Assembly (NCBI RefSeq): GCF_963921235.1
Contig: NC_086097.1
Coordinates: 154,630,001-154,694,000, forward strand
Reading direction: 5' to 3'
Source of the DNA: Mobula hypostoma
Taxonomy: Eukaryota
DNA length: 64,000 bases
Part shown: piece after piece, positions 1,679 to 61,286 of the stretch
Numbering within the stretch: the stretch's first letter is position 1
Layout: each line of letters begins with the position of its first letter
The notes under the pieces: generated by a model
Databases searched by the model: none
Told to the model about the DNA's origin: nothing
The model's input: the letters and a program-made list of their open reading frames with translations, nothing else
Program-made: the position numbers and the translations under genes

Positions 1679-1920
1679 TTATATTTTTGTATGTAATTGC
1701 TTTATTCTTCTATTTTGTACAATTTAGCTGAAACGATCTTTGTTCTGTTCCTCAGTGTACTGTATCATATCCTCCAGGATCTCCCGGACTGCCTAGTTAT
1801 ATTTTTGTATTTAAGTGCAGTATTCTTGAAGTTTTGTGCAATTTTACTAAAAAGAATCTTTGTTCTGTTCCTCAGTGTCCATTACCATGTCCTGCAGGTC
1901 CTCCTGGATCTCCCAGGCTG
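1679..1920 (+). repeat. Degenerate ~120 bp tandem duplication including the acceptor and part of the NC3 exon
   Basis: atctttgttctgttcctcagtgt at 1736 and 1856; ttatatttttgtat at 1679 and 1797; outer boundaries approximate. Confidence 0.75.
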
Positions 1921-1930
1921 CCAGGATAAG
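1876..1930 (+). pseudogene. Collagen exon A (NC3/COL2 junction) CPLPCPAGPPGSPRLPG*; 55 bp instead of 57
   Basis: ctcag|TGTCCATTACCATGTCCT...GGATAAG|gtaaac; CPxxCP motif of collagen IX NC3; Gly>Arg (AGG) and TAA at 1927-1929. Confidence 0.8.
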
Positions 1931-2993
1931 GTAAACAGTAGTTATTTATACTGTTCTATTCCTGTTTATTGAGAACTGAATCCTGTCCTACAAGAAACCA
2001 TGGTTGAGAACTCAATCAAAGAAACTGATTTTGATTTTTTTTATTACCTATTTTAGTTTGAAGAAAGGTTCTATTTATTTGGCAAGGCCGGTGGACAGAC
2101 ATGTTGGATAGGACAGAGAGATCCCAATCCTCTTTAATTGTGCTGTACAGTCTTTTACAGTGGTAGCCTAAGTTATTTGCACAAATTCTAGATTAAATGT
2201 TCGATACCCAACCTGCTGATTCACAGAGGAGGGTAATGATATCTGAACCAAGCTACCACATAAGGTAAAGGCCTACCTCACTGTTGCCTTTATTTTTGCT
2301 TTGTTGGTGACGACATTTTCCACTTGTGTCAGGGCTTAGACAGATAAATACTCCTGTGATTTGGCAGCATGCAGCTCTGTCACTGCACAATCCACCACTG
2401 TGCTTGAGTGGTCATTGGTTCCACAGACTCTCAGAATCACACAGCAGAGAATCAGGCCATTTGCCCCACCAGGTCTGTGTTGACCATCAAGCACCTTTTC
2501 ACTTTATCAAATTTTATTCTCCTCACATTTCCGTCGACTCCCCCAGCCCCTGCCCTGATGCTACCCCTCACCTGCAGAGTAAGGACAATTTAAAGTTGTC
2601 AATTAGCCTACCAACGCACACAGCTTGGGGATAGAGGAAGTTACTGGAGGAAATTACCCAGAGGAAATCCTTATGGTCAGAGAGAGAATGTGCAAACTCC
2701 ACATAAACACTAGAGGCTTGGATCACTGGAGAATTGAAGAATCTGCTCTTCCAACAGTGCCACTGTCATTCCAGAATCTTTCATTTCTGCCCATAATTTT
2801 GCAACACTTCAGAGTGACAAGGCGTGATTCCAGTTCTCTCTTGTTTAGTGTGTACCCTCAGTGAACCATGATTGACTTTAGTTGAGACCAGCATGTTTTT
2901 CAGTATTTCATGATGTTGCATTTTAATTCACTACACAACTGCACAAACCTGTTTCGTACTGATACTGAAAATTAACCACCTTTTCTCTTCTAG

Positions 2994-3047
2994 GGACAGA
3001 AAGGCCAAAAAGGTGTTGCTGGAGCAGTGGGCAAGGAGGGTCTGAAG
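2994..3047 (+). CDS. Collagen exon, 54 bp, GQKGQKGVAGAVGKEGLK
   Basis: ttctag|...|gtatat; 6 Gly-X-Y triplets. Confidence 0.9.
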
Positions 3048-4352
3048 GTATATGAACAGAGCCAAATTTCCTCTTAGTATATTTCTCAAGTTCTGTGAGA
3101 ATTGTTATGCTTTTGGAATAGGCCATTCATCCCATGAAGTCAAAGTCAAAGAGCAGTGCAGCTCAGAAACAGGCCATTTGGCCCATCTAGTCTCTGCCAA
3201 GCTATTATTTTGCATAGTCTCATTGACCTCGACCTGGACCTTAGCCTTCCATGTACCTCCCATCGATGTACTTATCCTAATTTATCATAAATATTAAAAT
3301 CAAACACACATCCATCACTTCCACTGGCAGCCTGTTGCACACTCTTACCAGCCTCTGAATGAAGAAGTTCCTCCTCAAGTTTCCCTTAAATATTTCACCT
3401 TTCACCCTTAACTTAGAACGTCTGGTTTTAGTCTCACCCAAAGGTTTTGACTTTGGCAGGACTCAAACCGAGACCCTTTGATTCACTTCAACCATGAGAA
3501 ATTCAATGTGCTATCCATTGTGCCATGAGCAACCCATTAGATCCTCTTCCAGCTCCTAATTCCTGCCTTCCTCCTCCCATAGACCCGCAAATAGTGTGCC
3601 TTTAACATTCTCACATATTTCCCTTTAATGGACTCTACCTTTGCCCCACCTTTACTGTCAGTGAATTCCAACCATAATCACTCCTGGTTTAAGAAAGTTT
3701 TCCATATTTCCTTGTTTTTTTTTACACCTATGTTTTGGATCTTCTCTGCTCCTCTAATTATCCATAATGGGAACAAGGAAACTGAGAAACTTTGAAAAAC
3801 AGGAACATAGGTAGCCCATAGGATCCTTTGATATTACTCCACCATTTATTATGATTATGATGGCTGTCTGTCTCCACACTATATTCTCATTCTTTCCTCA
3901 GGTTCTTCAATACTTTTTGCATCTAGAGATTTTTTTATTATAAATTTTCTGAAGACAATGAGCAACTTGACCACTATATCCCTCTGTGGTAATAAGCTAC
4001 ACAGGTTCACCAACCTCAGATGAGAAGAAGTTTGTCCATGCAGTGTCTTGAATGTCCTCCCCATAACCCAAAACACTGATCCTTCAGTACAGCTTCGCCA
4101 GAGGAAACATCATCCTCAAATCAAATTTGTCCAGCTCTGTTATAATTTTGTTAGTTTTTATGAGATCCCCTTTCCTCTATACTCTAGTTACTAGACATTT
4201 AATTGGTTGAATATTGCAACCAAAAAAAAATCTGGTGGACTATTGCTGTACTCACTCGCTGCCAAGCATATTCTTTCTTGAAAATGTAAGCCAAACTCCT
4301 ATGGGTATGATGTTATCACCAAAGGCCTGTACATCTGAACTAAGCCACCCTT

Positions 4353-7832: not shown

Positions 7833-7886
7833 GGCAATCGTGGCTCTCCTGGGCCACAAGGTATCAGAGGTCTCCCTGGATCTGAG
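7833..7886 (+). CDS. Collagen exon, 54 bp, GNRGSPGPQGIRGLPGSE
   Basis: atacag|...|gtatat; 6 triplets. Confidence 0.9.
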
Positions 7887-8821: not shown

Positions 8822-8875
8822 GGTTCTCATGGACGTAGAGGTTTTCCTGGTGCATCAGGAAATAAAGGGAGCAAA
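8822..8875 (+). CDS. Collagen exon, 54 bp, GSHGRRGFPGASGNKGSK
   Basis: ctctag|...|gtgagt; 6 triplets. Confidence 0.9.
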
Positions 8876-9876
8876 GTGAGTACTATATTAAAAATATTTT
8901 CCATGAGGATGTACAATATATTATAACTTTCAGTCAATTTGTTATCAGTTAAGCTTGCAAAGAAAGAATTATTGCTCTTCTCATCTACAATGCCTATATT
9001 AATATTTTTGAAACAGATACAATTATTTTACTTAATATTCTGTATTTGTGTTATTTTTCCCAAGCCAATTTCCTCTGCAATTCTTGTGCTACCTCCAACC
9101 TAATTTTAACACATCATGTTCCTTCAATACTTGTTCTCTCCATTGCCACAGCAAAGTTCTCTTTGCTCCTGTTGTTTTGCCTCAGCACATTTAATACACT
9201 TCCTCATTGCTTTACTGTAATTTCTATCCAGAGTCCTAAAAATTATACCTTAAGATGTCATCCCATTTTCTTTGTGCCTATTACAGTTCCTCTTTAATGG
9301 CATCATTCTGGAAGATTACTTTCACATTAATACACATGGTAATGGAACTCAAGTTATATTTTTGAAATTACCTTTCAGATTTCCACTATGCCATAATAAA
9401 TAATAAAATAATGTGAGATAGCAAATCTCAAGGTTGTATAACTTATACATTCTTTGATAATAAATGAATCTTGAATCTTGATAATTAATATAAGCAATAT
9501 TAATAAATAAAGTTTTGATATTGACTCTCACTAGACATCATGAGCATTTGGATGAACTGCAGAATAACTGAGATTTAGAGAAGGAATTTCAGCTCTTACT
9601 TTCTGTCAATCAATATTTCTGGAATTAAACTTAATTTTGTTTTGCAGTTTAACATTTATTATTAGAATTTTTCTTTTCTAATAGTTCAGTTTAACAAAAA
9701 TTCCCTTTTCTACCTCTGGCATATATGTAAATGAGGCCTCTTGGTTGTGCTTGCCAATGTGGATAGTGAGATGTCTCCTTGACATTGCACAACTGTAGAT
9801 CTACGTGGCACTAACATAAACTTTAGATCTGAAGTCAGACCTGTTAGCAGATGCAAGATCAAAGGTATTGTGAAAG

Positions 9877-11145
9877 GACGAATCTCATAGAATTTTTTGA
9901 GGATGTAACTAGTAGAGTGGATAGGGGAGAACCAGTGGATGTGGTATATTTGGATTTTCAAAAGGCTTTTGACAAGGTCCCACACAGGAGATTAGTGTGC
10001 AAACTTAAAGCACACGGTATTGGGGGTAAGGTATTGGTGTGGGTGGAGAATTGGTTAGCAGACAGGAAGCAAAGAGTGGGAATAAACGGGACCTTTTCAG
10101 AATGGCAGGCGGTGACTAGTGGGGTACCGCAAGGCTCAGTGCTGGGACCCCAGTTGTTTACAATATATATTAATGACTTGGATGAGGGAATTAAATGCAG
10201 CATCTCCAAGTTTGCGGATGACACAAAGCTGGGTGGCAGTGTTAGCTGTGAGGAGGATGCTAAGAGGATGCAGGGTGACTTGGATAGGTTGGGTGAGTGG
10301 GCAAACTCATGGCAGATGCAATTTAATGTGGATAAATGTGAAGTTATCCACTTTGGTGGCAAAAATAGGAAAACAGATTATTATCTGAATGGTGGCCGAT
10401 TAGGAAAAGGGGAGGTGCAACGAGACCTGGGTGTCATTATACACCAGTCATTGAAAGTGGGCATGCAGGTACAGCAGGCGGTGAAAAAGGCGAACGGTAT
10501 GCTGGCATTTATAGCGAGAGGATTCGAGTACAGGAGCAGGGAGGTACTACTGCAGTTGTACAAGGCCTTGGTGAGACCACACCTGGAGTATTGTGTGCAG
10601 TTTTGGTCCCCTAATCTGAGGAAAGACATCTTTGCCATAGAGGGAGTACAAAGAAGGTTCACCAGATTGATTCCTGGGATGGCAGGTCTTTCATATGAAG
10701 AAAGACTGGATGAACTGGGCTTGTACTCGTTGGAATTTAGAAGATTGAGGGGGGATCTGATTGAAACGTATAAGATCCTAAAGGGATTGGACAGGCTAGA
10801 TGCGGGAAGATTGTTCCCGATGTTGGGGAGGTCTAGAACGAGGGGTCACAGTTTGAGGATAGAGGGGAAGCCTTTTAGGACCGAGGTTAGGAAAAACTTC
10901 TTCACACAGAGAGTGGTGAATCTGTGGAATTCTCTGCCACAGCAAACTGTTGAGGCCAGTTCATTAGCTATGTTTAAAAGGAAGTTAGATATGGCCCTTG
11001 TGGCTACAGGGGTCAGGGGGTATGGAGGGAAGGCTGGGTTCTGAGTTGGATGATCAGCCATGATCATAATAAATGGCGGTGCAGGCTCGAAGGGCCGAAT
11101 GGCCTACTCCTGCACCTATTTTCTATGTTTTCTATGTTTCTATGT
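9877..11145 (+). mobile_element. Young 5'-truncated CR1 LINE (RT domain to 3' tail)
   Basis: Uninterrupted ORF with YLDFQKAFDKV, GVPQGSVLGP, KFADD; (TTTCTATG)n tail. Confidence 0.95.
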
Positions 11146-11605: not shown

Positions 11606-11659
11606 GGAACTCCAGGATATAATGGCTTGCCGGGGCCCCCAGGCCCACCTGGACCTACT
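11606..11659 (+). pseudogene. Collagen exon, 54 bp, GTPGYNGLPGPPGPPGPT; splice donor mutated
   Basis: ttccag|...|ttaagt (expected gtaagt). Confidence 0.85.
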
Positions 11660-12017: not shown

Positions 12018-13835
12018 CAACATACATCAAAGTTGCTGGTGAACGCAGCAGGCCAAGCAGCATCTGTAGGAAGAGGTGCAGTCGATGTTTCAGGCCGAGA
12101 CCCTTCGTCCGGACTAACTGAAGGAAGAGTGAGTAAGGGATTTGAAAACTGGAGGGGGAGGGGGAGATGCAAAATGATAGGAGAAGACAGGAGGGGGAGG
12201 GATAGAGCCGAGAGCTGGACAGGTGATAGGCAAAAGGGGATACGAGAGGATCATGGGACAGGAGGTCCGGGAAGAAAGACAAGGGGGGGGTGACCCAGAG
12301 GATGGGCAAGAGGTATATTCAGAGGGACAGAGGGAGAAAAAGGAGAGTGAGAGAAAGAATGTGTGCATAAAAATGAGTAACAGATGGGGTACGAGGGGGA
12401 GGTGGGGCCTTAGCGGAAGTTAGAGAAGTCGATGTTCATGCCATCAGGTTGGAGGCTACCCAGACGGAATATAAGGTGTTGTTCCTCCAACGTGAGTGTG
12501 GCTTCATCTTTACAGTAGAGGAGGCCATGGATAGACATGTCAGAATGGGAATGGGATGAGGAATTAAAATGTGTGGCCGCTGGGAGATCCTGCTTTCTCT
12601 GGCGGACAGAGCGTAGATGTTCAGCAAAGCGGTCTCCCAGTCTGCGTCAGGTCTCGCCAATATATAAAAGGCCACATCGGGAGCACCGGACGCAGTATAT
12701 CACCCCAGTCGACTCACAGGTGAAGTGATGCCTCACCTGGAAGGACTGTTTGGGGCCCTGAATGGTGGTAAGGGAGGAAGTGTAAGGGCATGCGTAGCAC
12801 TTGTTCCGCTTACACGGATAAGTGCCAGGAGGGAGATCAGTGGGGAGGGATGGGGGGGACGAATGGACAAGGGAGTTGTGTAGGGAGCGATCCCTGTGGA
12901 ATGCAGAGAGAGTGGGGGAGGGAAAGATGTGCTTAGTGGTGGGATCCCATTGGAGGTGGCGGAAGTTACGGAGAATAATATGTTGGACCCGGAGGCTGGT
13001 GGGGTGGTAGGTGAGGACCAGGGGAACCCTATTCCTAGTGGGGTGGTGGGAGGATGGAGTGAGAGCAGATGTACGTGAAATGGGGGAGATGCGTTTAAGA
13101 GCAGAGTTGATAGTGGAGGAAGGGAAGCCCCTTTCTTTAAAAAAGGAAGACATCTCCCTCGTCCTAGAATGAAAAGCCTCATCCTGAGAGCAGATGCGGC
13201 GGAGACGGAGGAATTGCGAGAAGGGGATGGCGTTTTTGCAAGAGACATTTTAATTCCACATCCCATTCCCATTCTGACATGTCTATCCATGGCCTCCTCT
13301 ACTGTAAAGATGAAGCCACACTCAGGCTGGAGGAAAACCTTATATTCCGTCTGGGTAGCCTCCAACCTGATGGCATGAACATCGACTTCTCTAACTTCCG
13401 CTAAGGCCCCACTTCCCCCTCGTACCCCATCTGTTACTCATTTTTATGCACACATTCTTTCTCTCACTCTCCTTTTTCTCCCTCTGTCCCTCTGAATATA
13501 CCTCTTGCCCATCCTCTGGGTCACCCCCCCCTCTTGTCTTTCTTCCTGGACCTCCTGTCCCATGATCCTCTCGTATCCCCTTTTGCCTATCACCTGTCCA
13601 GCTCTCGGCTCTATCCCTCCCCCTCCTGTCTTCTCCTATCATTTTGGATCTCCCCCTCCCCCTCCAACTTTCAAATCCCTTACTCACTCTTCCTTCAGTT
13701 AGTCCTGACGAAGGGTCTCGGCCTGAAACGTCGACTGCACCTCTTCCTACAGATGCTGCTTGGCCTGCTGCGTTCACCAGCAACTTTGATGTATGTTGCT
13801 TGAATTTCCAGCATCTGCAGAATTCCTTTTGTTTG
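12018..13835 (-). mobile_element. Penelope-like retroelement, truncated, with inverted pLTRs
   Basis: Minus ORF 12647-13153 with Cys-rich linker and GVIY...YIGET (GIY-YIG endonuclease); ~555 bp inverted arms; 15-bp TSD agttcacaatttgtg at 12003-12017 and 13836-13850. Confidence 0.9.
13700..13737 (+). ncRNA. Minimal hammerhead ribozyme motif (Penelope pLTR)
   Basis: agtc-CTGACGA-agggtctcggcct-GAAA-c-GTC-gact. Confidence 0.65.
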
Positions 13836-14610: not shown

Positions 14611-14664
14611 GGCCCTGAAGGTGCGCATGGTAGAAATGGAGAACCAGGCATCAATGGCGCCAAA
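14611..14664 (+). CDS. Collagen exon, 54 bp, GPEGAHGRNGEPGINGAK
   Basis: ttctag|...|gtaatt. Confidence 0.9.
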
Positions 14665-15140: not shown

Positions 15141-15194
15141 GGTCCAGAGGGACCTCAAGGACAGCATGGTGCTCCAGGACCTAAAGGCGAACCT
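15141..15194 (+). CDS. Collagen exon, 54 bp, GPEGPQGQHGAPGPKGEP
   Basis: ctccag|...|gtaagt. Confidence 0.9.
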
Positions 15195-17877: not shown

Positions 17878-20800
17878 GATTCAAAGTACAAAGTAAAATT
17901 TATTATCAGTGTACATACATGTCACTAGGTACAACACTGATATTCTTTTTCTGCGGCCATACTTAGCAAATCTATCTATAGAATACATAACTGTAAACTT
18001 TAAACATCAGGAACTATAAACTGTAAACAAACTGTGCAAATCCAAATATAAATTATAACATAAAAAACAATGTAATAGAGCTCTTAAATGAATGTAGTTA
18101 TCTCCTTTTGTTGAAGAACCGGATAGTTGAAGAGTAGTAAAAATTCCTGAAACTGGTTTTGCGAGTCCTAAGGCACCTATACCTTCTACCTGATGGCAGC
18201 AGCAAGAAAAGAGGATGGCCTGGATGGTGAGGATCTTTGATGATGGATGCGGCTTTTCTACAGCAATGTTTCAAGTAGATGTGCTCAATGGTTGGGTGAG
18301 TTTTCCCATGATGTAATAGGCCAAATCCACTACCTTTTGTAGGAATTTTCGCTCAAAGGCATTGGTGCTCCCATAGCAGGCTGTGATGCAGCCAGTCAGC
18401 ATATTTTCCACCACACACCGACAGAGTTTGCCAAGGTTTTTGATGACATGCCAAACCTTCTGAGGAAGTAGAGGTGTTGTGTGCTTTATTCGCAATGTGT
18501 CCAGGATAGGTCCTCTGAGATAGTAACACCCAGGAGTTTAAAGTTACTGTCCCACTCCACCTCTGATTCTGTGATGATTACTAGCTCATGGACCTCTGGT
18601 TTCTCTCTGCTGAGGTCTACAATCCGTTCCCTGGTCGTATTGACATTAAGTAAGAGGTTGTTATTACACCACTCAGCCAAGTTTTCAATCTCCCTTCTAT
18701 ATACTAATTCATCACCCCTTTTGATACAGCCCACAACAGTGGTGTCATCAGCAAACTTGTATATGGTGTTGGAGCTATACTTAGCCACACAGTCAGAGGT
18801 GTAAAGTCTGTAGTGTAGGGGGTTAAGCACACATCCCTGCAGTCCTCCTGTGCTGATGGAGGTTGTGGAGGAGATATTTCTGCCAAACCAAATTGACTGG
18901 GGTATACAACTGAGGAAATCCAGGATCGAATTGCACAATGGGATATTGAGGCGCAGGTCTAGGAGTTTACTGAGTTGTTTTGAGGGGATGATAGTGTTAA
19001 ATGCCGAGCTGTAATCAATAAAGAGCATCCTGATGTATGCATATCTTTGCTGGCCAGATGTTCCAGAGTTGTGTGAAGAGCCAATGAGATAGCATCTGTT
19101 GTAGGCCTGTTGCTTTGGGGGGGGGCTAATTGGAGTGGATCCAAGTCACCATTCAGACAGGAACAGCTATGCTTCAACACCAGCTTCTCAAAAACACTTC
19201 ATCACTGTGGATGTAAATGCCACTGGGCAATAGGCGTTTAGACAGGTTACCATGCTCTTCTTGGGCACTGGTATGCTTGTGCAGCTTGGTACCACTTCCT
19301 TCAGGAGCAAGAGGATGAAGATATCTATCAATACACCGGCCAGTTGGTTAGCACAGGTCTTCAGAACTTGGCCAGGTACTGGGTGCTCTCCTGGAGTTCA
19401 CTCTCATGAAGGCAGTCCACACGTCATCTTCAGATACTGATACCAAGGGATCATCAGGAGACATGGGTGTGTGCAATGGTTTCTCCCTGTTCAGGTGGTC
19501 AACGTGAGCATAGAAGGCATTGAGCTCATCTGGAAGCGAAGCTCTGCTGTTTCTATGTTGCAAGATTTAACTTTGTAGATGTTTATGGCATTCAAACCCT
19601 GAGACAGCTGTCGATCGTCCCTCATTGGTTCCAGTCTAGTCCAGAATCTATATTTTGCCCAAGAGATGGCTTTCCGGAGATCATACCTGCACCTCTTGGG
19701 GCATTCTTGATCTCCAGACTTGAATGCTTCTGATCTGGATCTCAGCAGATTCTGGATTTCATTGTTCATCCAGGGCTTCTGACTGGAGAAATCCCTGAAT
19801 GATTTTGTGGGGGACACACTCATCCACAGTTGTTTTAATGAAGTCTGTAATGACCCTGGTGTAGTCATTCAGGTCCTCAGATGAGTTCTTGAGCACGGCC
19901 CAGTCTATTGACTCAAGGCGATCCTGTTACCATTCCTCCACCTCCTAAGGCCACCCTTAGTTAACTTGACCTCTGGAGCTTTGCTGTTTAGGCTCTCTCT
20001 ATATGCAGGTAGCAGGAGTACAGCCAAATGATCTGACTTACCAAAATACAGTCTTGGGAAGGAATGATAGGCACTTCTTATTGTAGTGTAGCAGTGGTCT
20101 AGTGTGTTAGGAACATTGGAGCAATAGATTCTGTGCTGGTGATAATTGGGCAGGATTTTCTTCAAACAGGGCTGGTTAAAGTTGCTGAGTATAATTTGAA
20201 ATGCATCGGGATGGGCCGTTTCTTTCTTTTTTAAATTTTATTTAATTTTTTAAAGAAGAAATATAAGGATTCAATTAATACAACAATTAATACATATTGA
20301 AAAAAAATAATTCAAATATATTAATAAGTCAGAGAGAAAATAAAACACCTATCCCAACACCATCTCCCCGCATTTAGGAAAAAGGAGGGAGAAAAAAAAA
20401 ACATAAAAGACAGAGGAAAGAAAGGAGAGAAGAAAAAAGAAAAGAGAAAAAAAAAGAAAAAAAGAAGAGTAGGCATCCAGCTCTCGGAGTCAGTTTAAAA
20501 TACAAATTAAAGAAACTAGCTTATAATAAGGGATATATTAATTTTTAAAAATTAAAATAAATAAATTAAACCATCTGGGCATTTAAGTAATCGAAATACG
20601 GTTGCCAAACCTCAATAAACACAGTGTATCCATTCCTAAGGGTATAAGTAATCCTCTCAAGGGGTATACAACTTTGCATTTCTTTATTCCAACGATCAAT
20701 ATGTACAAGGGAATCGGATTTCCATGTTACCACTATGCATTTCCTGGCCGCTGACAACGCAATTTTAATAAATTTGGATTTATTCCTGGGAAGGTTAACT

Positions 20801-28474: not shown

Positions 28475-28528
28475 GGTGCTCCTGGGCCTGTTGGTCGAGA
28501 TGGGACTCCTGGAGCTAAAGGCATAAAG
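28475..28528 (+). CDS. Collagen exon, 54 bp, GAPGPVGRDGTPGAKGIK
   Basis: ttttag|...|gtaaca. Confidence 0.9.
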
Positions 28529-33956: not shown

Positions 33957-34010
33957 AGTGAAGCTGGAATACCAGGCTGAATGGGGGAAGCTGGAGTTCG
34001 TGGTTTACCT
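33957..34010 (+). pseudogene. Collagen exon, 54 bp, SEAGIPG*MGEAGVRGLP; Gly>Ser and in-frame TGA
   Basis: acgtag|AGT...TGA(33978-33980)...CCT|gtaagt. Confidence 0.88.
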
Positions 34011-34817: not shown

Positions 34818-34862
34818 GGTTTACATGGATCACCAGGATAAAAAGGACCCACTGGGGAAAAG
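34818..34862 (+). pseudogene. Collagen exon, 45 bp, GLHGSPG*KGPTGEK; in-frame TAA
   Basis: tctaag|GGT...TAA(34839-34841)...AAG|gtaatt. Confidence 0.88.
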
Positions 34863-37915: not shown

Positions 37916-37957
37916 AGGGGCCTAATAAATTTACGTGTGTGTTCATATATAATAGTA

Positions 37958-38360: not shown

Positions 38361-38389
38361 TGATGATATATACAAACACAACCACAAAT

Positions 38390-39110: not shown

Positions 39111-39197
39111 AGAACTACTGCTGCTACCATTGCTATTGTTTCTTTGTATTTTTGTGTTATCTTTAATGTCTTTAAAGTTACTGTTGCCTAATTTCAG

Positions 39198-39251
39198 GGT
39201 GATATTGGTGAGATGGGACTGATGGGTCCTCCTGGAATCCCAGGGCAGCCT
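39198..39251 (+). CDS. Collagen exon, 54 bp, GDIGEMGLMGPPGIPGQP
   Basis: tttcag|...|gtaagt. Confidence 0.9.
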
Positions 39252-41790: not shown

Positions 41791-41844
41791 GGTAACCCAG
41801 GAACACCAGGACAAAGAGGACCTCAAGGACAACATGGCCCTCCT
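41791..41844 (+). CDS. Collagen exon, 54 bp, GNPGTPGQRGPQGQHGPP
   Basis: cctaag|...|gtaagt. Confidence 0.9.
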
Positions 41845-43939
41845 GTAAGTACAGCAATTGCCATTCCATGGTTAGTGTTTTGCAGTTGTTCCATGAGTAC
41901 AGACTGAGATGAAAAAAGTACACTATTATTATCCCGGTACAATGGACAGAATACTTACCAGAGATTGAATTTTTAGTGTTAATTTGCCCTTTTTAGACTG
42001 TGCTAAAGGGATCAGATCTTGGAGTTATTCTCGCCAGGTCAGTGACAGATAAGCGATGTTTGGTCTAAGAAATTGGAGCAGGGGGAGTCCACTTGGCGAA
42101 TTGATCCTGCTCTGCCATTCAGTGATCTGGCAGTGAACTCAGGATTACCTATCAGCCTTTTCTCCATGACCCTTGATTCCCCTGCTGTACAAATATGTAC
42201 TTAACTGTGCCTTAAATGTATTTAATGAGGCAGCCTCTATTGCTTCCATGGGCTGAGAATTACCCAGAAGAACTATGCTCTGGGAAAGCAGCTTCTCCTC
42301 ATCTCCATCCTAAATTTCCCTGAATCTTCAGGTCACATCCCTTAGTTCTAACTTATAATCAGTGACTTATTCTGGAAACTCAAGACACAGGGCAGCAGGA
42401 CAAATAATGCTTGGCCTTGATACCTCCATGTGCACCCCAGCTTTTGATAATAGTTTTACCAAAAAAAAGCAGCAATTAATCAAGGTGAGACAGATCATAT
42501 ATCAATGAGCCAGTCTTCATCTAAAGTGGCCATGTTTATGGTGTGGCTATCTATCTTACACCATCTACACTGTGTCAGGCCACGAGCTGGAATGCTCTGT
42601 GATGATAACATTTGAATTTATTTATTATACTAGTTGTGTAAACTACTGATACAAAGAGGCAATAAAAGTGAAATATTTTATCTGATCTAAGATTATATAA
42701 TTCTGTTTTTACAGTTTCAAAGATCTTGTGTGCATCAAGTTACCTTACCCTATTTTCCATTTTTTAGACCTGCTAACATTTCGTGATAATGTTGGCTATA
42801 TGGTGAGATACAGATGATTACTGACTGTGGTATGGATAAGCAGAAACCTGCTGACAGTGAGATCTGAAATTAAGCATTTACAAACCTGGCGTTTATTTTC
42901 TTTGGTGAAATAAGTCCGGTAAAATATATTTCATAGCATCTACTAATGAGAACTCTTATCAAAAATAGTTGAACTAATAACGGGCATAAAATATCTCCAA
43001 AAATGTGTTAATTGTTCAAATTCTCAGCTTTATTCTCTCATCCTCTAATTAGTTTTTTTTTTCTAAGGGGGCAGAAGAAAGATGGACTATCCACATTTAT
43101 ACTCTTGTCCTTCTACGAAAGTGAAGTACAATGTATGACAACATGTTGCAAACTGCATGGTATGGAAAATGTAATGCGGCAATGGGTAGTCAAACTGCCC
43201 AACACATCACAGGCACCTGCCTACCTGCCACCAAGGACATGTATACAGAAAGGTGCTGGAAGGGGGCCAGTAAGATCATGAAGGATCACACCCTCTCTCC
43301 TCATTGACTTTTTATCCCATTCCTATCACATAGCATACACACCAGGACCACCAGAATCAAAAACAGTTACTTTCCCAACCAGAAACCTCCACCCACTAAC
43401 CCACCCTCCCACACCCCCCACCACCACTACTTTATCATTTCCTGTCACAGTTACCTTATGTACTCCTGTGCCTAGAATCACTTTATGGACATTCAATCAA
43501 TCTATGTATACAAGCTATCTAATATAATTATATTTATTGTTCTTTTAAAACTATTGTGTCTTTATCTTTTGTGGTTTTCTTTTTCTGTTTTTCTGTGCTG
43601 CATCGGATCTAGAGTAACAGTTATTTCCTTCTCCTTTATACTTGCATCTTGGACATTAAGCAATCTTGTATCTTGAGTCTTGTTTGGTTAAGTCAAGCAT
43701 TTTAAATAACAGACTGTTAAAATGTTAAATAAATTACTGCAAGGAACGTACATTTAAATAGCAACCCTCAATCTTTCCAAATTCCCTTTGGTGTTTGCAG
43801 TCAATTAAGTACTTTAGAAATGTAGTTGCTGTGATTACATACCAAATCAAAACAGCACTTAGCAAGATTTTGCAAATAGTTTTGAGGTAAGTTTGATGGA
43901 GGTATAGATATTGTTGAGAACTACTTTCATTTTCTTTGA

Positions 43940-44370
43940 CTGTGTATTGGAATTGGTTTAGTATTGTCACATGTACCAACATACAGTGAAAAGCTTGTCT
44001 TATATACTGTTTATGTAGATCAAAGTGCATTGAAATAGAAGAAGGTAAAACAATAACTGCACAGAATAAAGTGTAACAGCTACACAGAAAGTGCAGTGCA
44101 GGTAAACAATAAAGTGCAAGATCATAATGAAGTACAAACGTAGATTGTGAGACATAAGTCCATTGTATCGTATAGGAGGTCTGTTCAAGAGTCTGATAAC
44201 ATTAGGATAGAAGCTGACCTTGATCCTGGTAGTATGTGTTTTCAGGCTTTTATATCTTCTGCCTGATGGGAGAGGGGAGAAGGGAGAATGCCCAGGGTGG
44301 GAGGGGTTTTTGATTATGCTGGCTGCTTTAATGAGGCAGTGAGAAGTGGAGACAGAATCCACAGTTGAGT
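43940..44370 (-). mobile_element. Rex/Babar LINE 3' fragment
   Basis: KAASIIKNPSHPGH..FSPLPSGRRYKSLKTHTTR..SFYP..IRLLN. Confidence 0.75.
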
Positions 44371-45550
44371 GTTCACGGCTGTCTGAAGTTTCTTGTGGTC
44401 ACATATATTCTTTATCCGGAAGTTAAGACAGAGGTAAAATATCAGTTCTGATCTTGTAGAGTGGTGGACTGTTTACTAACTGCTCAGAAGTAAGAAACAT
44501 TTGATTGCAGTACTGATTTTGTCTAAGCCTAAATTATGCTCAAATTATTAAAATAAGATGTACAGTATGTTTGCAATCAACTGACTTAAAGCCAAAAGTG
44601 ACTATTAATGTTAACAGTAGTTACTCACATGGGTAAAGGAGAATGCAGTGGTACAACGTTGTGAAGTGTTATTAACACAGTCAGAAGCTCAACTGATCGA
44701 CTCAACAGTCTGAAACAGGGTTAAACCCAAGTTCCTAAGAACATAAACTATTGCAACAGAATGGACAAGTGTAAATTAAATCCAGTCTGAGTTACTTTGA
44801 ATAATTCATCATAGTTCCCCGTACAAATTAGATTTTGGTAACGCTCATCTGATGAAGAGGAAAATAGTATTCTGGTGAAATTTAAAGGGGAACAAAGGGA
44901 ATTATCCCTGTAAGGGGATAAAATGTTAGCCAGCTTTAGGAGAGATTTAAATTATATCTAAACTTTTCTGAATGCTGTAATGGCAGAGGATTAAAAGTGC
45001 TGGAGGCAACAAAGGTGAAGCAAACATTAAATTCAACAACCAGGAGCAACTATCGCTGATTTGAAAGTACACATCCTTGGGCTTACAGAGATCTTGATGT
45101 GTGGCCAGGAAGTATGAATATCTGCTTAATTACAGAAGGAACATTCACAGCAAGTTGACCTTGAGTCATTTTAGGATACAGTCTCCAGTTACTAGTATTG
45201 ATATAAACAACTTACATTTATATTTTGTATAGCACCTTCAATTACATAATAGAAAAAAAAGGAGCTCCTGTAGATTATTTCATTAAATTACTTGAGACTC
45301 TGGATTAGTTTTACCCTACTGATGATGTGTTGTTATAATAGTAATCCTGCTCAGTATGAGAGGAACTATAGGTTTGGATACTTGGTATGTCTTGGCTGAG
45401 GAGGCAAGGGTGTGAAGCTACCATCTGGGGGATTCTGACTGAATGGTTTTAAATCAGAATCCTCCCGAAACATTATAAATCAATGTATCAATCAAAGAAG
45501 AATGGATGTCTTCAATTAGCATTAGTGTTAATTAAGACCATCCAGGTAAG

Positions 45551-46416: not shown

Positions 46417-47594
46417 ATAGAAACATAGAAACATAGAAAATAGGTGCAGGAGTAGGCCATTCGGCCCTTCGAGCCTGCACCGCCATTTATTATGATCATG
46501 GCTGATCATCCAACTCAGAACCCCGCCCCAGCCTTCCCTCCATACCCCCTGACCCCCGTAGCCACAAGGGCCATATCTAACTCCCTCTTAAATATAGCCA
46601 ATGAACTGGCCTCAACTGTTTCCTGTGGCAGAGAATTCCACAGATTCACCACTCTGTGTGAAGAAGTTTTTCCTAATCTCGGTCCTAAAAGGCTTCCCCT
46701 CTATCCTCAAACTGTGGCCCCTCGTTCTGGACTTCCCCAACATCGGAAACAATCTTCCTGCATCTAGCCTGTCCAATCCCTTTAGGATCTTATACGTTTC
46801 AATCAGATCCCCCCTCAATCTTCTAAATTCCAACGAGTACAAGCCCAGTTCATCCAGTCTTTCTTCATACGAAAGTCCTGCCATCCCAGGAATCAATCTG
46901 GTGAACCTTCTTTGTACTCCCTCTGAGGCAAAGATGTCTTTCCTCAGATTAGGGGACCAAAACTGCACACAATACTCCAGGTGTGGTCTCACCAAGGCCT
47001 TGTACAACTGCAGTAGTACCTCCCTGCTCCTGTACTCGAATCCTCTCGCTATAAATGCCAGCATACCATTCGCCTTTTTCACCGCCTGCTGTACCTGCAT
47101 GCCCACTTTCAATGACTGGTGTATAATGACACCCAGGTCTCGTTGCACCTCCCCTTTTCCTAATCGGCCACCATTCAGATAATAATCTGTTTTCCTATTT
47201 TTGCCACCAAAGTGGATAACTTCACATTTATCCACATTAAATTGCATCTGCCATGAATTTGCCCACTCACCCAACCTATCCAAGTCACCCTGCATCCTCT
47301 TAGCATCCTCCTCACAGCTAACACTGCCACCCAGCTTCGTGTCATCCGCAAACTTGGAGATGCTGCATTTAATTCCCTCATCCAAGTCATTAATATATAT
47401 TGTAAACAACTGGGGTCCCAGCACTGAGCCTTGCGGTACCCCACTAGTCACCGCCTGCCATTCTGAAAAGGTCCCGTTTATTCCCACTCTTTGCTTCCTG
47501 TCTGCTAACCAGTTCTCCACCCACACCAATACCTTACCCCCAATACCGTGTGCTTTAAGTTTGCACATTAATCTCCTGTGTGGGACCTTGTCAA
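46417..47594 (-). mobile_element. Young 5'-truncated CR1 LINE
   Basis: ORF 46612-47568 nearly identical to the 9877 copy; (catagaaa)n tail. Confidence 0.95.
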
Positions 47595-47880
47595 TCTATT
47601 CCGTAACTCACTTAAGTTTACAACATCATTGTATAAACATTTTTGAGGCCGTGTTGATGGTTGTCCACCTATTTAAGATGAGTTGAGCACATATAATTTT
47701 TTGAAGACTTGAGTCCTGCTTTCTCCAGAAAAAAAATTGAGAACAAAATCAGCATTCATGTTCCAGACTTGATCATTACCTCTTAAGATATAGCTAGTTT
47801 TGTACAATACTGAAGCCTTCCAACTTATACCTTGTATTTTACAGTTTAAAACATTTAATGCAATATTTTTTTTATTTCAG

Positions 47881-47934
47881 GGAATTTCTGGAGAGCCAGG
47901 ACTCATTGGACCTCCTGGTTTACCAGGTCCTAGT
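47881..47934 (+). CDS. Collagen exon, 54 bp, GISGEPGLIGPPGLPGPS
   Basis: tttcag|...|gtgagt. Confidence 0.9.
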
Positions 47935-49825: not shown

Positions 49826-49897
49826 TTATATCTCTGACCTGTAGGTTGAAAGAGCTGATTTGATTTTTTTAATTAGCTGCTGTTTTCTGGTTAATAG

Positions 49898-49969
49898 GGA
49901 ATGAAAGGTGACTGTGGTCATCCTGGGCTTCCGGGCCCTCATGGGTTTCCTGGAGGGAGAGGTGATAAG
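49898..49969 (+). CDS. Collagen exon, 72 bp, GMKGDCGHPGLPGPHGFPGGRGDK
   Basis: taatag|...|gtatga; 8 triplets. Confidence 0.9.
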
Positions 49970-50517: not shown

Positions 50518-50553
50518 GGCTCTTCTGGTATTCCTGGTCTTAAAGGATGTGAG
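50518..50553 (+). CDS. Collagen exon, 36 bp, GSSGIPGLKGCE
   Basis: tttcag|...|gtaaaa; 4 triplets. Confidence 0.85.
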
Positions 50554-51278: not shown

Positions 51279-51323
51279 GGAAAGCAAGGTCTGAAAGGTA
51301 AAGCTGGACAAAAGGGTGAGCAG
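51279..51323 (+). CDS. Collagen exon, 45 bp, GKQGLKGKAGQKGEQ
   Basis: tgaaag|...|gtaagt; 5 triplets. Confidence 0.88.
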
Positions 51324-51870
51324 GTAAGTCATGATAAATATATAAAGTCCTATACATTAAGATTTTGTGGTTCAAAGGCTCTTGCTTCACACGTTGGCTG
51401 ATGAAATACCTCAAGCTAAGTCTGGATCAGCTGGAGGAGAATATTTAGTAATCATTGAGTGTTTAGGGAAGAACCTTTTCTCACTGATTTTAAAGAATCT
51501 GAAAATTGATCTACTTTGCCCTTCATGTATTATCCATAATGGTTTCTGAAATTATCATATTGTTGGAAGATGGCTTGGCATGAATTGTACTGTTTTTCCA
51601 AGTAAGAAATAGCTTTCGTGCATATTTGAATGCAGATATTGACAATCTTCCAAAGTATGACACGGCAACAGAACTAGCCAGGTCTCTTTAGAAGGAGTAG
51701 AATGGAGCTGAATTGGAAATCATGAAATTTTTCAAAGGGATTTGTCCTTCCAGATTATTAATACATGCAGAGGAAGATGAGCGAGATCCCCACTGCTTTA
51801 TTGGAAAATGAATATTGGTCATTCTTAAGCATAGTTCTTTTATAAAAAATTATGTATTTATATTTTACCG

Positions 51871-51903
51871 GGGATTCCTGGTCTTCAAGGCAAGAAAGGA
51901 GAG
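51871..51903 (+). pseudogene. Collagen exon, 33 bp, GIPGLQGKKGE; splice acceptor mutated
   Basis: tattttaccg|GGG... (expected ...tacag); donor gtacat; 33-bp split-triplet exon typical of collagen IX. Confidence 0.8.
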
Positions 51904-55052: not shown

Positions 55053-58000
55053 CATGTGAAGACAGACTCTGGCGGATTGAGCGGACGAGACCAATGGAAG
55101 GTCCAACGGTCAAGAAGGCGGTCTCAACTCTTGTCTTGTCACTGGATCCAGATAGGAATTAGGAAGAGAGAGTGAGGCTGATGCTGCGCAACTCTCCCTC
55201 ACTTCAATCCAAATCAAGCGCTAGTCTCGACATCATCATCATCTTCACCCTCAAACTTTGAAGTCCTGTGGCGATGGGCGAGTGATGAAGCAGCAGGTGT
55301 GGATACACTGGGAGCTGTAGTCACGGACCTGCACACAGGCAGCTCAGGTCTAATAGTCACTTTTCACTGACCGAAGCAGCAGTGAAACTCAGCATCTACC
55401 TGGGCGACTGAACAGCCCTCTTTAGGAACGCACTGCTCACCCCCGTAGTATGAGGAAGGGGCTAGAAAAGGTGCCCTAAACTTTGCCTGCTTCATTACAC
55501 CCTGGCCAGTTTACCGCAGCTGGCAGAGATCCTATCTTGGCGGTCGAACAAACACAACAAAACGCAAGGTGACACCACTCACCATTGGCAGTTGGAACAT
55601 GTGCACGCTATTCGACAACCCTACAGTAAACAGACCAGAGAGAAGAACAGCCTTAGTTGCCAGAGAGCTTGCAAGATACAACATTGACATAGCAGCCCTG
55701 CATGAGACTCGTCTTGCCCACGGAGGTCAGCTGACTGAAACTGGAGATGGATACACCTTTTTCTGGAGCGGTCGCAGCGGCGATGAGCGTCGTGATGCTG
55801 GAGTTGGATTCGCCGTCAGGAGTCACCTTGTTCGGAAACGTTCCAGTCTCCCCAAGGGTGTGAATGACCGGCTCATGACACTACAGCTTCCGCTACAGAA
55901 CAGAAGTCAAGCCATCCTGATCAGCGCCTATGCCCCCACAATGACCAACCCGGATGAGACGAAAGACGGGTTCTATGAAGAACTAGACGCCCTACTATCA
56001 GCAGTGAGCAGCACCGACAAGCTGATTTGGCTCGGCAACTTCAATGCAAGAGTAGGGCATGACTCTGCAGCCTGGCAGGGAGTCACTGGGAGACATGGAG
56101 TGGGCAAATGTAACAGTAACGGCCTATTCTTGCTGAAGACCTGTGAAGCACACGGCCTGCTCATCACCAACACAACTTTCCACCTGCCTACCCGTAACAA
56201 GACCTCCCAGATGCACCCCCGCTTTAAGAATTGGCATCTTGTCGACTATGTCATTGTCAGGAGAAAAGACAGGCAGGATGTCAGAGTGACAAAGGCGATA
56301 TGTGGTGCTGAATGCTGGACAGATCACAGGCTCATTGTCTCCAAAATGAAGCTCCGCATCAGACCCAAGAGGTGACCACAAGGAAGCAAGGCTATGAAAA
56401 GATTCAATGTGGCCAGGCTGAAGAACTCCAGCATAGCTTCAGCACTGGCTGAAGATTTAGAAACCAAGGTTGCTGACCTACCCCTTGCAGGCAGCACTGT
56501 GGACGACTGGGATCGCTTCAGCGATGCTGTCCATTCACCTGCACTAAAGGGCTCTCTACCCACAAGAAGCATGGCTGGTTCAATGAGAATGATGAGGAGA
56601 TACAGGCTCTACTCGTTGAAAAGCACCACCTTCATTGTGCCCATCAGAACGACCAATCATCAGCTGCCAAGAAAAATGCCTTTACCAGTGCTTGCAGGAT
56701 AGTTCAGAATAAACTGTGTAAAATGCAAGATGCCTGGCTGAGCGCCAAGGCAGATGAACTACAGGGATGCGCTGACAGAAATGACTTGAAACGATTCTAT
56801 GAAGCCCTCAACACTCTCTATAGACCTCAGTCTCTTGGGAGCTCCCCCCTCCTGAGTACAGATGGTACTGTTACGTACCCCGTAACTGGGTTGCCAAACC
56901 AGCAGAAATGGATCACTCAGTTGCAGTCTGGATTACTGGAACTAAGAGAGTTTTATTAAAGAAACAAGCAACACAGTACTCTAATCAAAAGGATAATAAA
57001 TGCAACAGTTCAGCAATGATAAACACACATGGTACACAAAATTAGGATAACAGGATCAATCAAGCTCTATCGTCGTCTAGGGGTAAATGACCAGTTTCAA
57101 AGTGACGCAAAGTTCAGTTCAGTTCACAGTAATCACTGCCGTGGCGATGGACAGTGGGGGGGATGGAGAGAGAGAGCAAAAACGAATGAATATTCAAACG
57201 GCTTCCACACAGACCTTCGATACTCTTCACAGTCAGCTTTTGGGCGAGCCCTTTGTGATGTCATCTGAGGTCACCGACTGTGACCCCCCCCCCCCCCCGT
57301 TTCCAGATACGATCGTTTCTCTGCGGTGAAACCTGGCACCCAGGCAAGGGCGGACACACACCAGGTTCCCGCCGATCGTACCTTTCCACCCTGTGCGTCT
57401 ATGGCTTGGTCCCGCGACCAGCCCTCCAAAACCTCCCACCAACTTGTGGGAGACGCACCGCTTCCAGGGTCTCGTTACCTCGGGGTGTTGTGTGTGTCTT
57501 GCCTTAGCGAACCTGTCCCTTTTTATCCCCCTGCTGGGGTATCGCCTGTCCATCACTTCAAACAGTTCAGGGTTCAAAGGGGGGGCCGATCTTGACAGCT
57601 CTCCTTCTGTCCCTTAATTAACATCTCCAAATGCTGCTCCATTGTTTTCCTTATCTCTCTTTCTCCTGAAGACAGGTGGCAGACCAACTGCTGATCCCAC
57701 TGGTGCCAGCACAGGACAGTTAACACCTTAATCTATGTGTACTCTCGTCACAGTACAACTCTCATTACAGAGCAGGCTCAGATCCTGCAGAGATGGGCTG
57801 AACACTTTGAAGCCATCCTTAACCGACCATCATATATTAACGATGAGGCGATAGACAGGATTCCCCAGGTCGACATCAACAGCGTCATGGATGACCCACC
57901 GGTAGTAGCCGAAGTTACGGAAGCTGTCAGCAGCTATCCAGTAACAAAATCCCAGGGGCAGACGCCATACCTGCAGAGATCTACAAAACCGGTGGTCCTG

Positions 58001-59688
58001 TACTTATAGAGAAGCTCACTGAGTTGTTCCAGTCTTTTTGGAAGCAAGGATCCATTCCTCAGGAACTTAAAGATGCATCCATCGTACACCTCTACAAGAG
58101 GAAGGGCAATTGAAAAGTATGCGACAACCACCAAGGAATCTTGCAGCTCTCCATAGCAGGAAAAACCCTTGCAAGAGTCCTGCTAAATTGTTTGGTCACT
58201 CACCTGGAGCTGGGCTTGCTGCCAGAGTCAGTGTGGCGTTCGCAAAGGTCGTGGGACTATTGACATGATTTTTTTAGTGGGTCAACTTCAGGAGAAGTGT
58301 CAGGAGCAGAATCGCGAACTCTACACAACTTTTGTTGACCTCACGAAAGACTTCGACACTGTCTGCCGACAAGGCCTGTGGAGGATCATGTCAAAGTTCG
58401 GCTGCCCCGCCAAATTCATTCAGATGGTACACCAGTTCCATGATGGCATGATGGCCGGAGTGCTGGACGGTGGAGAATCCTCTGAGGCATTCCCAGTCAC
58501 CAATGGCGTCAAGCAGGGCTGTGTGCTCGCACCCACACTGTTCAGCATGATGTTTTTTGCCATGCTGAATGATGCCTTCCAGGACAGTGATGCTGGAATC
58601 AGCCTCAAGTATAGAGTGGATGGGAAGCTCTTCAACCTGAGGAGACTTCAAGCTATCACCAAAGTGAAGAAGACTGTTCTGAGAGACATCCTCTTTGCCG
58701 GTGACTGCGCCCTGTATGCTGGCTCAGAGCTAGAGATGCAAGACAATACTGATAAACTCTCCACGGCTTGTGACAACTTTGGACTCACCATCAACATCAA
58801 AAAGACCGAAGTCATGCACCAGCCTACCCCTCCTGCACCGTACACAGAACCCAAAATCACAATCAAAGGACAGAAACTACATGCAGTGGACCAGTTCACT
58901 TACCTTGGCAGCAACCCTCTCCTGAGCAGTGGCTATTGATACAGAAGTTAACTGCAGAATAGCAAAGGCAAGTTCTGCTTTCAGTAGACTGTGCTCCACT
59001 GTATGGGAATGCCGAGGAATCAGTCCAGCAACAAAACTGAAGGTCTACAGAGCTGTGGTACTCACTACCCTCCCGTATGCCTGCGAAACATGAACTGTGT
59101 ATCGAAGGCATACAAGACAGCTCAACCACATGACTTGTCTTCGCAGAATATTAGGCATCAGATGGCAAAATAAAGTACCAGACACTGAAGTTCTCTCTAG
59201 ATCAAGTCTGCCATCAGTCCACACACTGGTGATGAGAGCACAGACCTGGTGAGCAGGTCATGTCATCGGCATGCCAGACGAGCGCATACCCAAGCAGCTC
59301 CTTTTTGGGGAACTCTCTGCTAGAAGATGCTCGGATGGAGGACAGAAGAAACATTACAAAGACACATTAAAGGCCTCCCTGAAGTCACCTGACATAGACA
59401 CAACCACCTGGGAAACGCTGGCACAAAACCGCCCTACCTGGCGCAGCCTCATCCACAAGGGCTGTCAAGCTTACGAAGCAAGGCGCATTGCTGAAGCACA
59501 ACATAAGCACAAGCTGCACAAGTCCAGAGACACCAGCGCAACAACTGCAGTGCCTACACGTCTGCCCAACACGTGCCAGGACATTCCGTGCCCGAATTGG
59601 CCTGACCAGTCACCTTCAGACACACTGTATCCAGTCTCAAAGTGACTAATGGTGTCGAGGTCTTCATCGACAATGATGGATGAACCAT
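55053..59688 (+). mobile_element. RTE-clade LINE, near full length and degenerate
   Basis: APE ORF 55569-56375 (PERRTALVARELARYNIDIAAL.ETR, SAYAPT, TDH); RT 58265-58939 (FVDLTKDFDTV, GVKQGCVLAP); C-terminus MPDERIPKQLLFGEL; atgtag duplicated at 55047-55052 and 59689-59694. Confidence 0.92.
56869..57752. mobile_element. Solo LTR (TG...CA) inserted in the RTE ORF
   Basis: tgttacgtacccc...cgtcaca; 4-bp TSD GTAC on both sides. Confidence 0.85.
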
Positions 59689-60042
59689 ATGTAGACAACA
59701 TCCATTGCCTTGTCTTCATCAACTTTCCTGGTAACTTCCTCAAATAAAACTCTGTAAGAATGTATGGACACAACCTACCACACATAACGCCATGTTGATT
59801 ATGTCTGGTTCCTTAGAATACCTTCCAATAACTTAACAACTACTGTATTCTTTAGAGCCTTTTTTAAACAATGGAACAACATTAGCTAGCCTCCAATCCT
59901 CCAGCACTTCACCTGTTACTAAGGACATTTTAAATATCTCTGCTAGGACTTCTGCAATTTCTGCATCAGCCTCCCAGAAGGTATGAGGGAACACCTTGTC
60001 AGGCTGTGGGGATTTATCAATCCTAATTTGACTCAAGACAAC

Positions 60043-60867
60043 TGTTACGTACCCCGTAACTGGGTTGCCAAACCAGCAGAAATGGACCACTTAGTTGGAG
60101 TCTGGTTTAACAGAAGCTAATAAAGTTTTATTAAAGAAATAAGTAACACAGTACTCTAATCGTAAGGATATAAATGCAACAGGTTAGCAATAATAAAACA
60201 CACGTAAACAGAACTAGGGTAATAGGAATCAATCAGGCTCTATCGCAGTCTAGGGGTAAAATGATCAGTCTCAAGTGATGCAGAGTTCAGTTCAGCTTAG
60301 TACAGTTCGCAGTAATCACTGTTGTGCCGTTGGAGAGAGAGAGAGAATGCAAATTTTGATTCAGACCTTTGATGTTCTTCACAGTTGGCTTTCGGGCGAA
60401 CCCTTTTATGTCTTCTGTGGTCACCAACTGTGACCCCTCTGTTCCGGATACGACCATTCTTCCGCGGTGAACCCGGCACCCAGGCAAGGGCGGACACACA
60501 CACCAGGTTCCCACCGATCGTACCCTTTCACCCTGTCAGTCTATGGTCGGTTCCCTCGAACCAGACCTCCAGCTCCCACCAACTAGTGGGGGCACACCGC
60601 TCTTCCAGGGTCTCATTATCTCGTGATCTCGTGGTGTGTGTCGTGCCTTAGCGAACCTGTTCTTTTTATCCCCCTGCTGGGGTATCACCTGTCCATCAAA
60701 CTTCAAACAGTTCAGGTTCAAAGCAACCGGTCTGTCAATATTCTGAAATGTGTTTCTTTCTTGTTAATCTCTCTCTTCTCTCTTATTAGCATTTTGAATG
60801 TTTCTCCATTGTCTCACTTATCTCTCTCATCAGCATCAATCTTCTGATAACTTGGTTTGTCGTCACA
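60043..60867. mobile_element. Solo LTR of the same family, inserted in the old CR1
   Basis: Same termini; 4-bp TSD CAAC on both sides. Confidence 0.85.
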
Positions 60868-61158
60868 CAACAATCACCACCTCTTCTGTAATCTGTGTTT
60901 ACTGGGCACAGACTCTATAGAAATGAGGCAAAACCGTGGGGAGTTAATGGATCATACACAGGTACAAGGAGAGCTAGCTAATTGGATATATAATTAGCTT
61001 GATGACAGAAAGCAGAGCGTGATGATGAAAGTTTCCTCTTCAAGTTGGAAGGCCTTTATTAATGCTGTCCTCTTGAGTAAATACAAGTAGAATAAAGACA
61101 ACTGCCAGAGTTGAGTATTTTGTCTTCATGTGTTGTTATACATGTTTTGCCTTCATAG

Positions 61159-61286
61159 GCTGGGATGTCTGGTGGAATGGACCTCCTGGACGGCCTGGTC
61201 TTCAGGGACCACCAGGTCCAGTTGGTTCTCAAGGAATGGAAGGAGTACAAGGAGCTCCTGGGCTTCCTGGTTCACCAGGTAAACAG
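61159..61286 (+). pseudogene. Collagen exon, 128 bp, AGMSGG/frameshift/[36 protein letters not shown]
   Basis: tcatag|GCT...CAG|gtgagt; first codon completes the GE-A triplet of the 33-bp exon; length not a multiple of 3. Confidence 0.85.

Follow-up and report, generated by a model that had tools for sequence, protein, structure and literature searches.

Background

The loss of the actinodin genes in tetrapods was reportedly described by Zhang et al. in 2010, and the loss of actinodins and actinotrichia is a leading genetic idea for the fin-to-limb transition: one ancient event, which left no readable pseudogenes. Passages of PMC13120675, PMC4764851 and PMC13573005 cite this loss, and in the last two it is stated that the jawed-vertebrate ancestor had just two actinodin groups, those of And1/2 and And3, and that tetrapods have none. 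In cartilaginous fishes the counterpart of actinotrichia is the ceratotrichia, and catshark And1 marks the fin fold (parts of PMC4778128 and PMC11681717); batoids, according to a passage of PMC13543312, have no ceratotrichia distal to the pectoral radials. A collagen belongs to the same system: actinotrichia carry the product of zebrafish col9a1c (prp locus; LC546948) and need it for their alignment (PMC10119692), and passages of PMC11409509 and PMC13120675 likewise give it a role on these fibres. Here we describe a gene of the ray Mobula hypostoma that crosses a stretch of 64,000 nucleotides (contig NC_086097.1, positions 154,630,001 to 154,694,000, forward strand), called the window in what follows: it is almost certainly a collagen IX pseudogene, and very probably an orthologue of col9a1c.

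Results

A disabled collagen IX gene

An earlier note on the window had proposed 18 collinear Gly-X-Y exons with lesions in six of them. Six-frame and DNA-level scans find all 18 on the forward strand and in order, and the six lesions are present as that note described them, in six of the 18 exons (Table 1); two glycine substitutions come in addition. As a control for chance, the strict pattern AG-(Gly-X-Y)n-GT was searched in the window and in 200 shuffles that permute two-base blocks: it has 14 matches on the forward strand, none on the reverse strand, and none in any of the 200 shuffles.

The collagen IX type put forward in the same note also stands: a 33-exon table of the gene has three Gly-X-Y domains, the short NC3 and NC2 between them, and NC1 at the end. 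The exon sizes match the COL9A series, which for COL2 we take to be 57, 54 (eight times), 45, 54 (three times), 72, 36, 45, 33, 147, then 55 bp, with two exons shortened by lesions. These are the NC3 exon, whose expected size is presumably 57 bp, and the last COL2 exon, which falls 19 bp short of the 49 codons that the catshark protein P0002 would require (Scyliorhinus torazame). A cysteine pair is present in NC3 and a Cys-x4-Cys at the COL1/NC1 junction, in the last exon; both are features of collagen IX.

The window lies entirely inside the gene and holds its middle part. In the 3.48-Gb genome (locus G000:C1:154630001-154694000) the gene continues into both 100-kb flanks, by about 60 kb on the upstream side of the 18 exons and 9.5 kb on the downstream side, for a total of about 131 kb from NC4 to NC1. 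The first COL3 exon contains three extra copies of a 34-bp unit, and an ungapped scan did not find two COL3/NC3 exons expected from sharks. A stop suspected where the signal exon joins the next one was dismissed, as an upstream acceptor preserves the frame. Altogether there are 5 stops in 842 codons, 4 changed glycines among the 159 scored, 2 frame breaks, and 2 to 3 splice lesions. With DNA, the last exon or NC4 as query, this locus is the sole close match in the genome, so that no second copy was found in an assembly that may be incomplete. With its introns kept and several independent disabling lesions, the gene has the marks of a unitary, that is, unprocessed, pseudogene, and we regard its inactivation as close to certain.

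Table 1. Exons of the collagen pseudogene and of the two actinodin genes, with their lesions. Collagen positions are window coordinates, extended on the same strand outside the window (genome position minus 154630000); And3 lesions are relative to the stingray (Hemitrygon) protein P0024.
Feature	Position	Strand	Size (bp)	State
Signal-peptide exon	about -60360 (~G000:C1:154569640)	+		open
Four NC4 exons	-57110 to -47628	+	84/130/397/81	all open, splice sites usable
Seven COL3-region exons	-33366 to -5996	+		TAG at -29327 (154600673), Gly substitution at -25207
NC3 exon (Cys-Pro-x-x-Cys-Pro)	1876..1930	+	55	TAA at 1927, Gly to Arg at 1915
COL2 exon	2994..3047	+	54	intact
COL2 exon	7833..7886	+	54	intact
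COL2 exon	8822..8875	+	54	intact
COL2 exon	11606..11659	+	54	donor is TT at 11660
COL2 exon	14611..14664	+	54	intact
COL2 exon	15141..15194	+	54	intact
COL2 exon	28475..28528	+	54	intact
COL2 exon	33957..34010	+	54	first Gly to Ser (33957), TGA at 33978; both in read-derived contigs
COL2 exon	34818..34862	+	45	TAA at 34839; in read-derived contigs
COL2 exon	39198..39251	+	54	intact
COL2 exon	41791..41844	+	54	intact
COL2 exon	47881..47934	+	54	intact
COL2 exon	49898..49969	+	72	intact
COL2 exon	50518..50553	+	36	intact
COL2 exon	51279..51323	+	45	intact
COL2 exon	51871..51903	+	33	acceptor is CG at 51869-51870
Last COL2 exon	61159..61286	+	128	frame break near 61178
NC2 exon	66146-66200	+		TAA at 66197 (154696197)
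Two COL1 exons	from 66982 and from 68552	+		Gly substitution at 67092; GC donor after the 66982 exon
Last exon	70566-70777 (to 154700777)	+		
And3	C67:51159205-51159995 (L041:1705-2495)	+		1-bp frameshift near L041:1915; in-frame Gln to TAG at L041:2000
And1/2 main exon	C9:73664650-73667150 (L040:249-2750)	-		single premature TAA at L040:507-509

Two side observations concern the exons themselves. Just 5' of the real NC3 exon, at 1679-1788, its acceptor and first codons are repeated in tandem, in a decayed form that is 80% identical. Compared with sharks, the pseudogene lacks whole triplets in several collagen exons (L002:2982-4620, L012:3960-4004), and part of this shortening may predate the death of the gene.

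It is very improbable that the lesions stem from assembly errors, or that they mark a single null haplotype of a still segregating gene. Contigs were compared for 4 of 24 read runs over positions 32600-45500, a range that includes the lesion sites 33957, 33978 and 34839. Those of run X1 span 33690-34535 and 34696-35354 with no difference from the window, so both stops and the glycine substitution are present in reads. X1 is possibly the source sample of the assembly, and contigs lose rare variants, which leaves room for the haplotype version. Most lesions are substitutions, however, the neighbouring genes are clean, and a dozen lesions spread over 95 kb correspond to about 2.3% of neutral divergence, more than half the 1.3% that separates the ray from organism B (see below). 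The earlier note was right to argue against assembly noise. The neighbouring gene that we used as assembly control is a collagen with VWA and TSPN domains.

This neighbour lies tail to tail with the pseudogene on the reverse strand, from 108956: it has a VWA exon and TSPN exons, and no internal stop in the 22 exons examined. We take it to be COL22A1, of which the sequence shows the VWA-TSPN-collagen layout; an atlas search with its last exon gave generic collagen matches only.

Relation to col9a1c

The N-terminal NC4 of the window gene carries the TSPN/LamG domain (Pfam PF02210, above cut-off), and is 50% identical to that of chimpanzee COL9A1. A search with the NC4 exon returned 16 proteins from 135 candidates: sharks at 81-82%, sturgeon, paddlefish and coelacanth at 63-64%, and teleost-type proteins at 55-61%; none of the 16 is named as a tetrapod protein, two being unnamed. 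A teleost query finds three tetrapod COL9A1 proteins, at 48-53%, among its 15 matches, and the whole NC4 of the window gene is 46-54% identical to tetrapod COL9A1. In a tree of 14 NC4 sequences, a fish group that places the window gene beside two sharks is split from tetrapod COL9A1 with support 100/100.

The link with zebrafish goes through the primer sequences given for col9a1c in PMC10119692, which, translated by eye, encode LDLNRLD and GDTVCP. The two peptides occur together and exactly in the turbot and Prochilodus matches, and nearly so in those of Coregonus and Scleropages, which ties the fish NC4 group to zebrafish col9a1c. The primer-encoded C-terminal end was also tried as a marker and is not diagnostic: tuatara COL9A1 ends alike. 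Judging from sequence likeness and trees, the window gene would very probably be the orthologue of col9a1c, a fish-type paralogue of collagen IX alpha-1. The two share a clade, by NC4 identity and tree, and the same collagen IX alpha-1 layout with NC4; the gene in the ray differs in being an elasmobranch pseudogene, and its likeness to the zebrafish gene goes through teleost relatives.

Closer at hand are the shark proteins P0001 (Carcharodon) and P0002, which are 79-82% identical to the ray in NC4 and 71% over NC2-NC1, with the same exon order; the collagen part of both database models is mispredicted in places. In NC4 they are 96% identical to each other: unlike in the ray, the domain is strongly conserved.

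The earlier note implied the loss of a cartilage collagen IX chain, and this part of it is not supported. The genome has separate genes of COL9A1, COL9A2 and COL9A3 type, with last exons at C2:96.45, C76:5.18 and C2:166.52 Mb (the names of the last two are our assumption), to which cartilage collagen IX is left, and a C-terminal tree rejects the grouping of the window gene with the COL9A1-like gene (approximately unbiased test, p-AU 5.6e-8). The same tree rejects a window gene placed within the COL9A1 clade (p 0.028), and joins the C2:96.45 gene to tetrapod COL9A1 (92/99).

Three facts could suggest that an animal whose skeleton is cartilage has lost its true cartilage COL9A1: the shark orthologue goes under the name collagen alpha-1(IX) at NCBI, the window gene is the genome's best NC4 match to chimpanzee COL9A1, and genome searches found no other NC4 of COL9A1 type. 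We nevertheless consider this most unlikely: besides its position in the tree, the C2:96.45-96.48 Mb gene is 59% identical to the C-terminus of tuatara COL9A1, where the window gene reaches 41%, and no stop interrupts the last eight exons of the C2 gene.

Canonical COL9A1, represented by the tetrapod proteins P0021-P0023 and by the C2 gene, shares with the window gene the exon-size series (the C2 gene shows matching exons of 36, 45, 147 and 55 bp), the NC3 and NC1 cysteine pairs, and the NC4 domain. It forms a separate clade and is unbroken in the exons seen. Both genes of the ray lie tail to tail beside another TSPN collagen, but the neighbours differ: a VWA-bearing collagen at the window gene, and a TSPN collagen without a nearby VWA match at C2. 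Two protein searches and two pattern searches failed to find an NC4 exon of the C2 gene, perhaps owing to masking or a gap in the assembly; if its absence is real, the ray would be without any NC4-bearing collagen IX chain, the window gene being dead.

Some by-products of these searches are worth recording. An NC3-cysteine pattern gave 78 mostly chance matches; among them are the window gene and a site that lies 5' of the last exon of the COL9A2-like gene, but not the C2 genes. An exact match to the last-NC4-exon pattern at C22:45509487-45509512 (reverse strand) has no TSPN exon nearby, and is possibly due to chance. At C1:126.79-126.90 Mb (forward) and C2:87.39-87.50 Mb (reverse) lie two paralogous pairs of genes; in each, a VWA-TSPN gene comes after a short collagen gene whose TSPN domain is a single exon; their C-termini are presumably unlike those of human FACITs.

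Age of the inactivation

Pooling the 5 stops (84 site-equivalents), the 4 glycine changes (318 sites) and, with the GC donor included, the 3 splice changes (130 sites) yields a neutral divergence since death of 2.3%, with a 95% interval of 1.2-3.9%; by class, the values are 6.0% for stops, 1.3% for glycines and 2.3% for splice sites. The distances of read contigs to the ray, over eight listed contig pieces per run, are 1.3% for organism B and 5.4% for organism C. Contigs of runs X5, X9 and X10, for organisms B, C and D, extend over some or all of the collagen lesion sites compared above; no RNA run is listed for positions 33700-35100, which carries no information on expression. The death of the collagen gene probably predates the split from organism B and falls near the split from organism C. 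The loss is recent: the proposal of an intron-containing, non-processed gene, recently inactivated in a cartilaginous fish, agrees with the introns, the multiple lesions and the neutral divergence.

The NC4 part has changed as well. Twelve of 116 conserved columns differ, several radically, and the ray branch is about 11 times that of the sharks (0.22-0.23 versus 0.02), which suggests that selection had already eased somewhat when the gene was finally lost. The same changes bear on another explanation, that the gene still yields a secreted product of some use, made of NC4 alone or by exon skipping. The open signal and NC4 exons with their usable splice sites would allow the first, and the symmetry of most collagen exons, which permits in-frame skipping, the second; but the radical changes in NC4 speak against it, and lesions across COL3, NC3, COL2 and NC2 would require at least seven exons to be skipped, which makes such a product highly unlikely.

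The actinodin genes

Since col9a1c aligns actinotrichia, we next scanned the genome for the actinodins, the other known fin-fibre genes. Their repeat C(N/D)PxxDPxC, given as the actinodin motif in a passage of PMC4764851, has 45 matches genome-wide, of which 17 are at C9:73.665 Mb and 2 at C67:51.159 Mb; in genome searches And3 and And1/2 have one locus each.

The gene on C67 is actinodin3: its five matches, from 26 candidates, are with Hemitrygon (84%), Narcine (74%), Leucoraja (73%) and two sharks (66%). These identities put the genome among batoids, probably close to myliobatiform stingrays. The upstream exon of the gene, at C67:51148232, is open, and the stretch listed in Table 1 carries a frameshift and a stop. 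An intron at the frame break was considered and rejected, the stingray and Narcine proteins being continuous across it. The gene on C9 is And1/2: its best match is the bamboo shark protein P0029, at 56%, followed by And1 of lungfish, gar and coelacanth, and an atlas search with it gave no match. Its main exon exceeds the bamboo shark model in length and has a far more extensive repeat array: a frame of 747 codons runs to the premature TAA, followed by 85 in-frame codons that are 56% identical to the tail of P0029.

Intronic elements

Several retroelements lie in the introns of the window. A young CR1 piece at 9848-11044 (forward) has the open frame reported earlier, 398 codons from stop to stop, and encodes a reverse transcriptase; two others are at 29949-32312 and 46612-47595 (both reverse). 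A decayed L1-like element occupies 20566-25619 (reverse), with its reverse transcriptase confirmed at 21891-23045, and there are an RTE-like element at 55449-59645 (forward) and a Penelope-like piece at 12647-13249 (reverse). The class names L1-like, RTE-like, Penelope-like and CR1 are our assumption; the reverse transcriptase alone is confirmed.

Discussion

In its working state, the window gene would have supplied a FACIT chain on the collagen fibres of the fin fold, keeping them aligned, as shown in zebrafish and presumed for elasmobranchs. If the ray lineage no longer needed actinotrichia or ceratotrichia, selection would have relaxed, and the gene could then have gathered the stops, splice losses and frameshifts that it carries. 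With a first stop 29.3 kb upstream of the window, a transcript would yield at most NC4 and a short broken helix, and any product would be without COL2, NC2 or NC1 for trimer assembly. The same release may now be affecting both actinodin genes, whose lesions are seen in the assembly.

We consider it probable that this unprocessed, single-copy pseudogene of col9a1c type reflects an actinotrichia/ceratotrichia programme that is decaying in one ray lineage, in parallel with the tetrapod loss of actinodins. A wider claim, which seems to us evenly balanced, is that the whole fin-fibre gene set (col9a1c, And3/4, And1/2) has been recently and independently dismantled, converging on the tetrapod state, with col9a1c a previously unlisted member of the genes lost with actinotrichia.

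There is also the possibility that drift, unrelated to fin fibres, removed a collagen IX paralogue that was redundant, and that the lesions of the actinodins arose separately or are truncations that the animal tolerates. The genome has three further collagen IX genes, the stop of And1/2 is single and late, And3 is kept in three other batoids, and the long NC4 branch fits a long period of weak selection. However, all three of the three fin-fibre-specific genes examined carry stops, while the 22 exons of the neighbouring collagen and the last eight of the COL9A1-like gene carry none, and the near identity of the shark orthologues in NC4 indicates a gene that is not dispensable in sharks. Drift seems unlikely to us on balance.

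Several points weigh against a decaying fin-fibre programme. On the collagen side, the absence of the col9a1c type in tetrapods comes from word-limited searches, the trees include no zebrafish protein, and the NC4 tree is without a reliable root: with the genome's distant TSPN exons as outgroups, long-branch warnings were raised and the root could not be placed. NC4 alone does not reject the window gene joined by itself to tetrapod COL9A1 (p 0.15), and the C-terminal tree does not place the window gene relative to teleost col9a1c, its identities being 42-43% with teleosts versus 36-41% with tetrapod COL9A1. The gene that is mutant in zebrafish col9a1c fish reportedly has a vascular role too, to judge by the title of a paper. 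On the actinodin side, the lesions are those of the assembly alone. And1/2 has one stop where about 2.5 would be expected at the age of the collagen lesions, and no frameshift in 833 codons, so that it may be a working truncated protein. Named And3 proteins are full length in Hemitrygon, Narcine and Leucoraja, and the loss of pectoral ceratotrichia, common to batoids, is therefore insufficient as an explanation. Lastly, the decay proposed for this ray is read from its genes.

Unitary pseudogenes that track a lost trait are of a known kind. The nearest parallel is the tetrapod case: there also, genes specific to fin-fold fibres were lost where the fibres are unused, and both ancestral actinodin groups are affected. 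The ray case differs in being independent, recent and readable as pseudogenes, in that the fins are kept, and in including a FACIT collagen. Literature searches, with subscription papers and the supplementary gene-loss tables of ray genome papers, which may list these genes, outside their scope, returned no paper in which rays are said to have lost col9a1c or an actinodin. Just 4 papers use the name col9a1c, and 3 mention ceratotrichia together with actinodin; passages of PMC10161429 and of the preprint 10.64898/2026.02.08.704681 contain nothing pertinent, and a term search of the main text of the skate genome paper (PMC10115646) gave no occurrence of actinodin, ceratotrichia or col9.

If col9a1c orthology is correct, the gene annotated as collagen alpha-1(IX) in shark would be the col9a1c paralogue. 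If the decay is real, the ray lineage would be a second, datable replicate of fin-fibre gene loss, allowing tests of the order of losses and a screen for unknown fin-fibre genes that decayed alongside. It would also allow testing of a recent prediction, found in a passage of PMC13573005, that collagen fibres turn perpendicular without actinodins. And if the whole set is indeed lost, the embryos of this ray would build their fin fold without actinotrichia.

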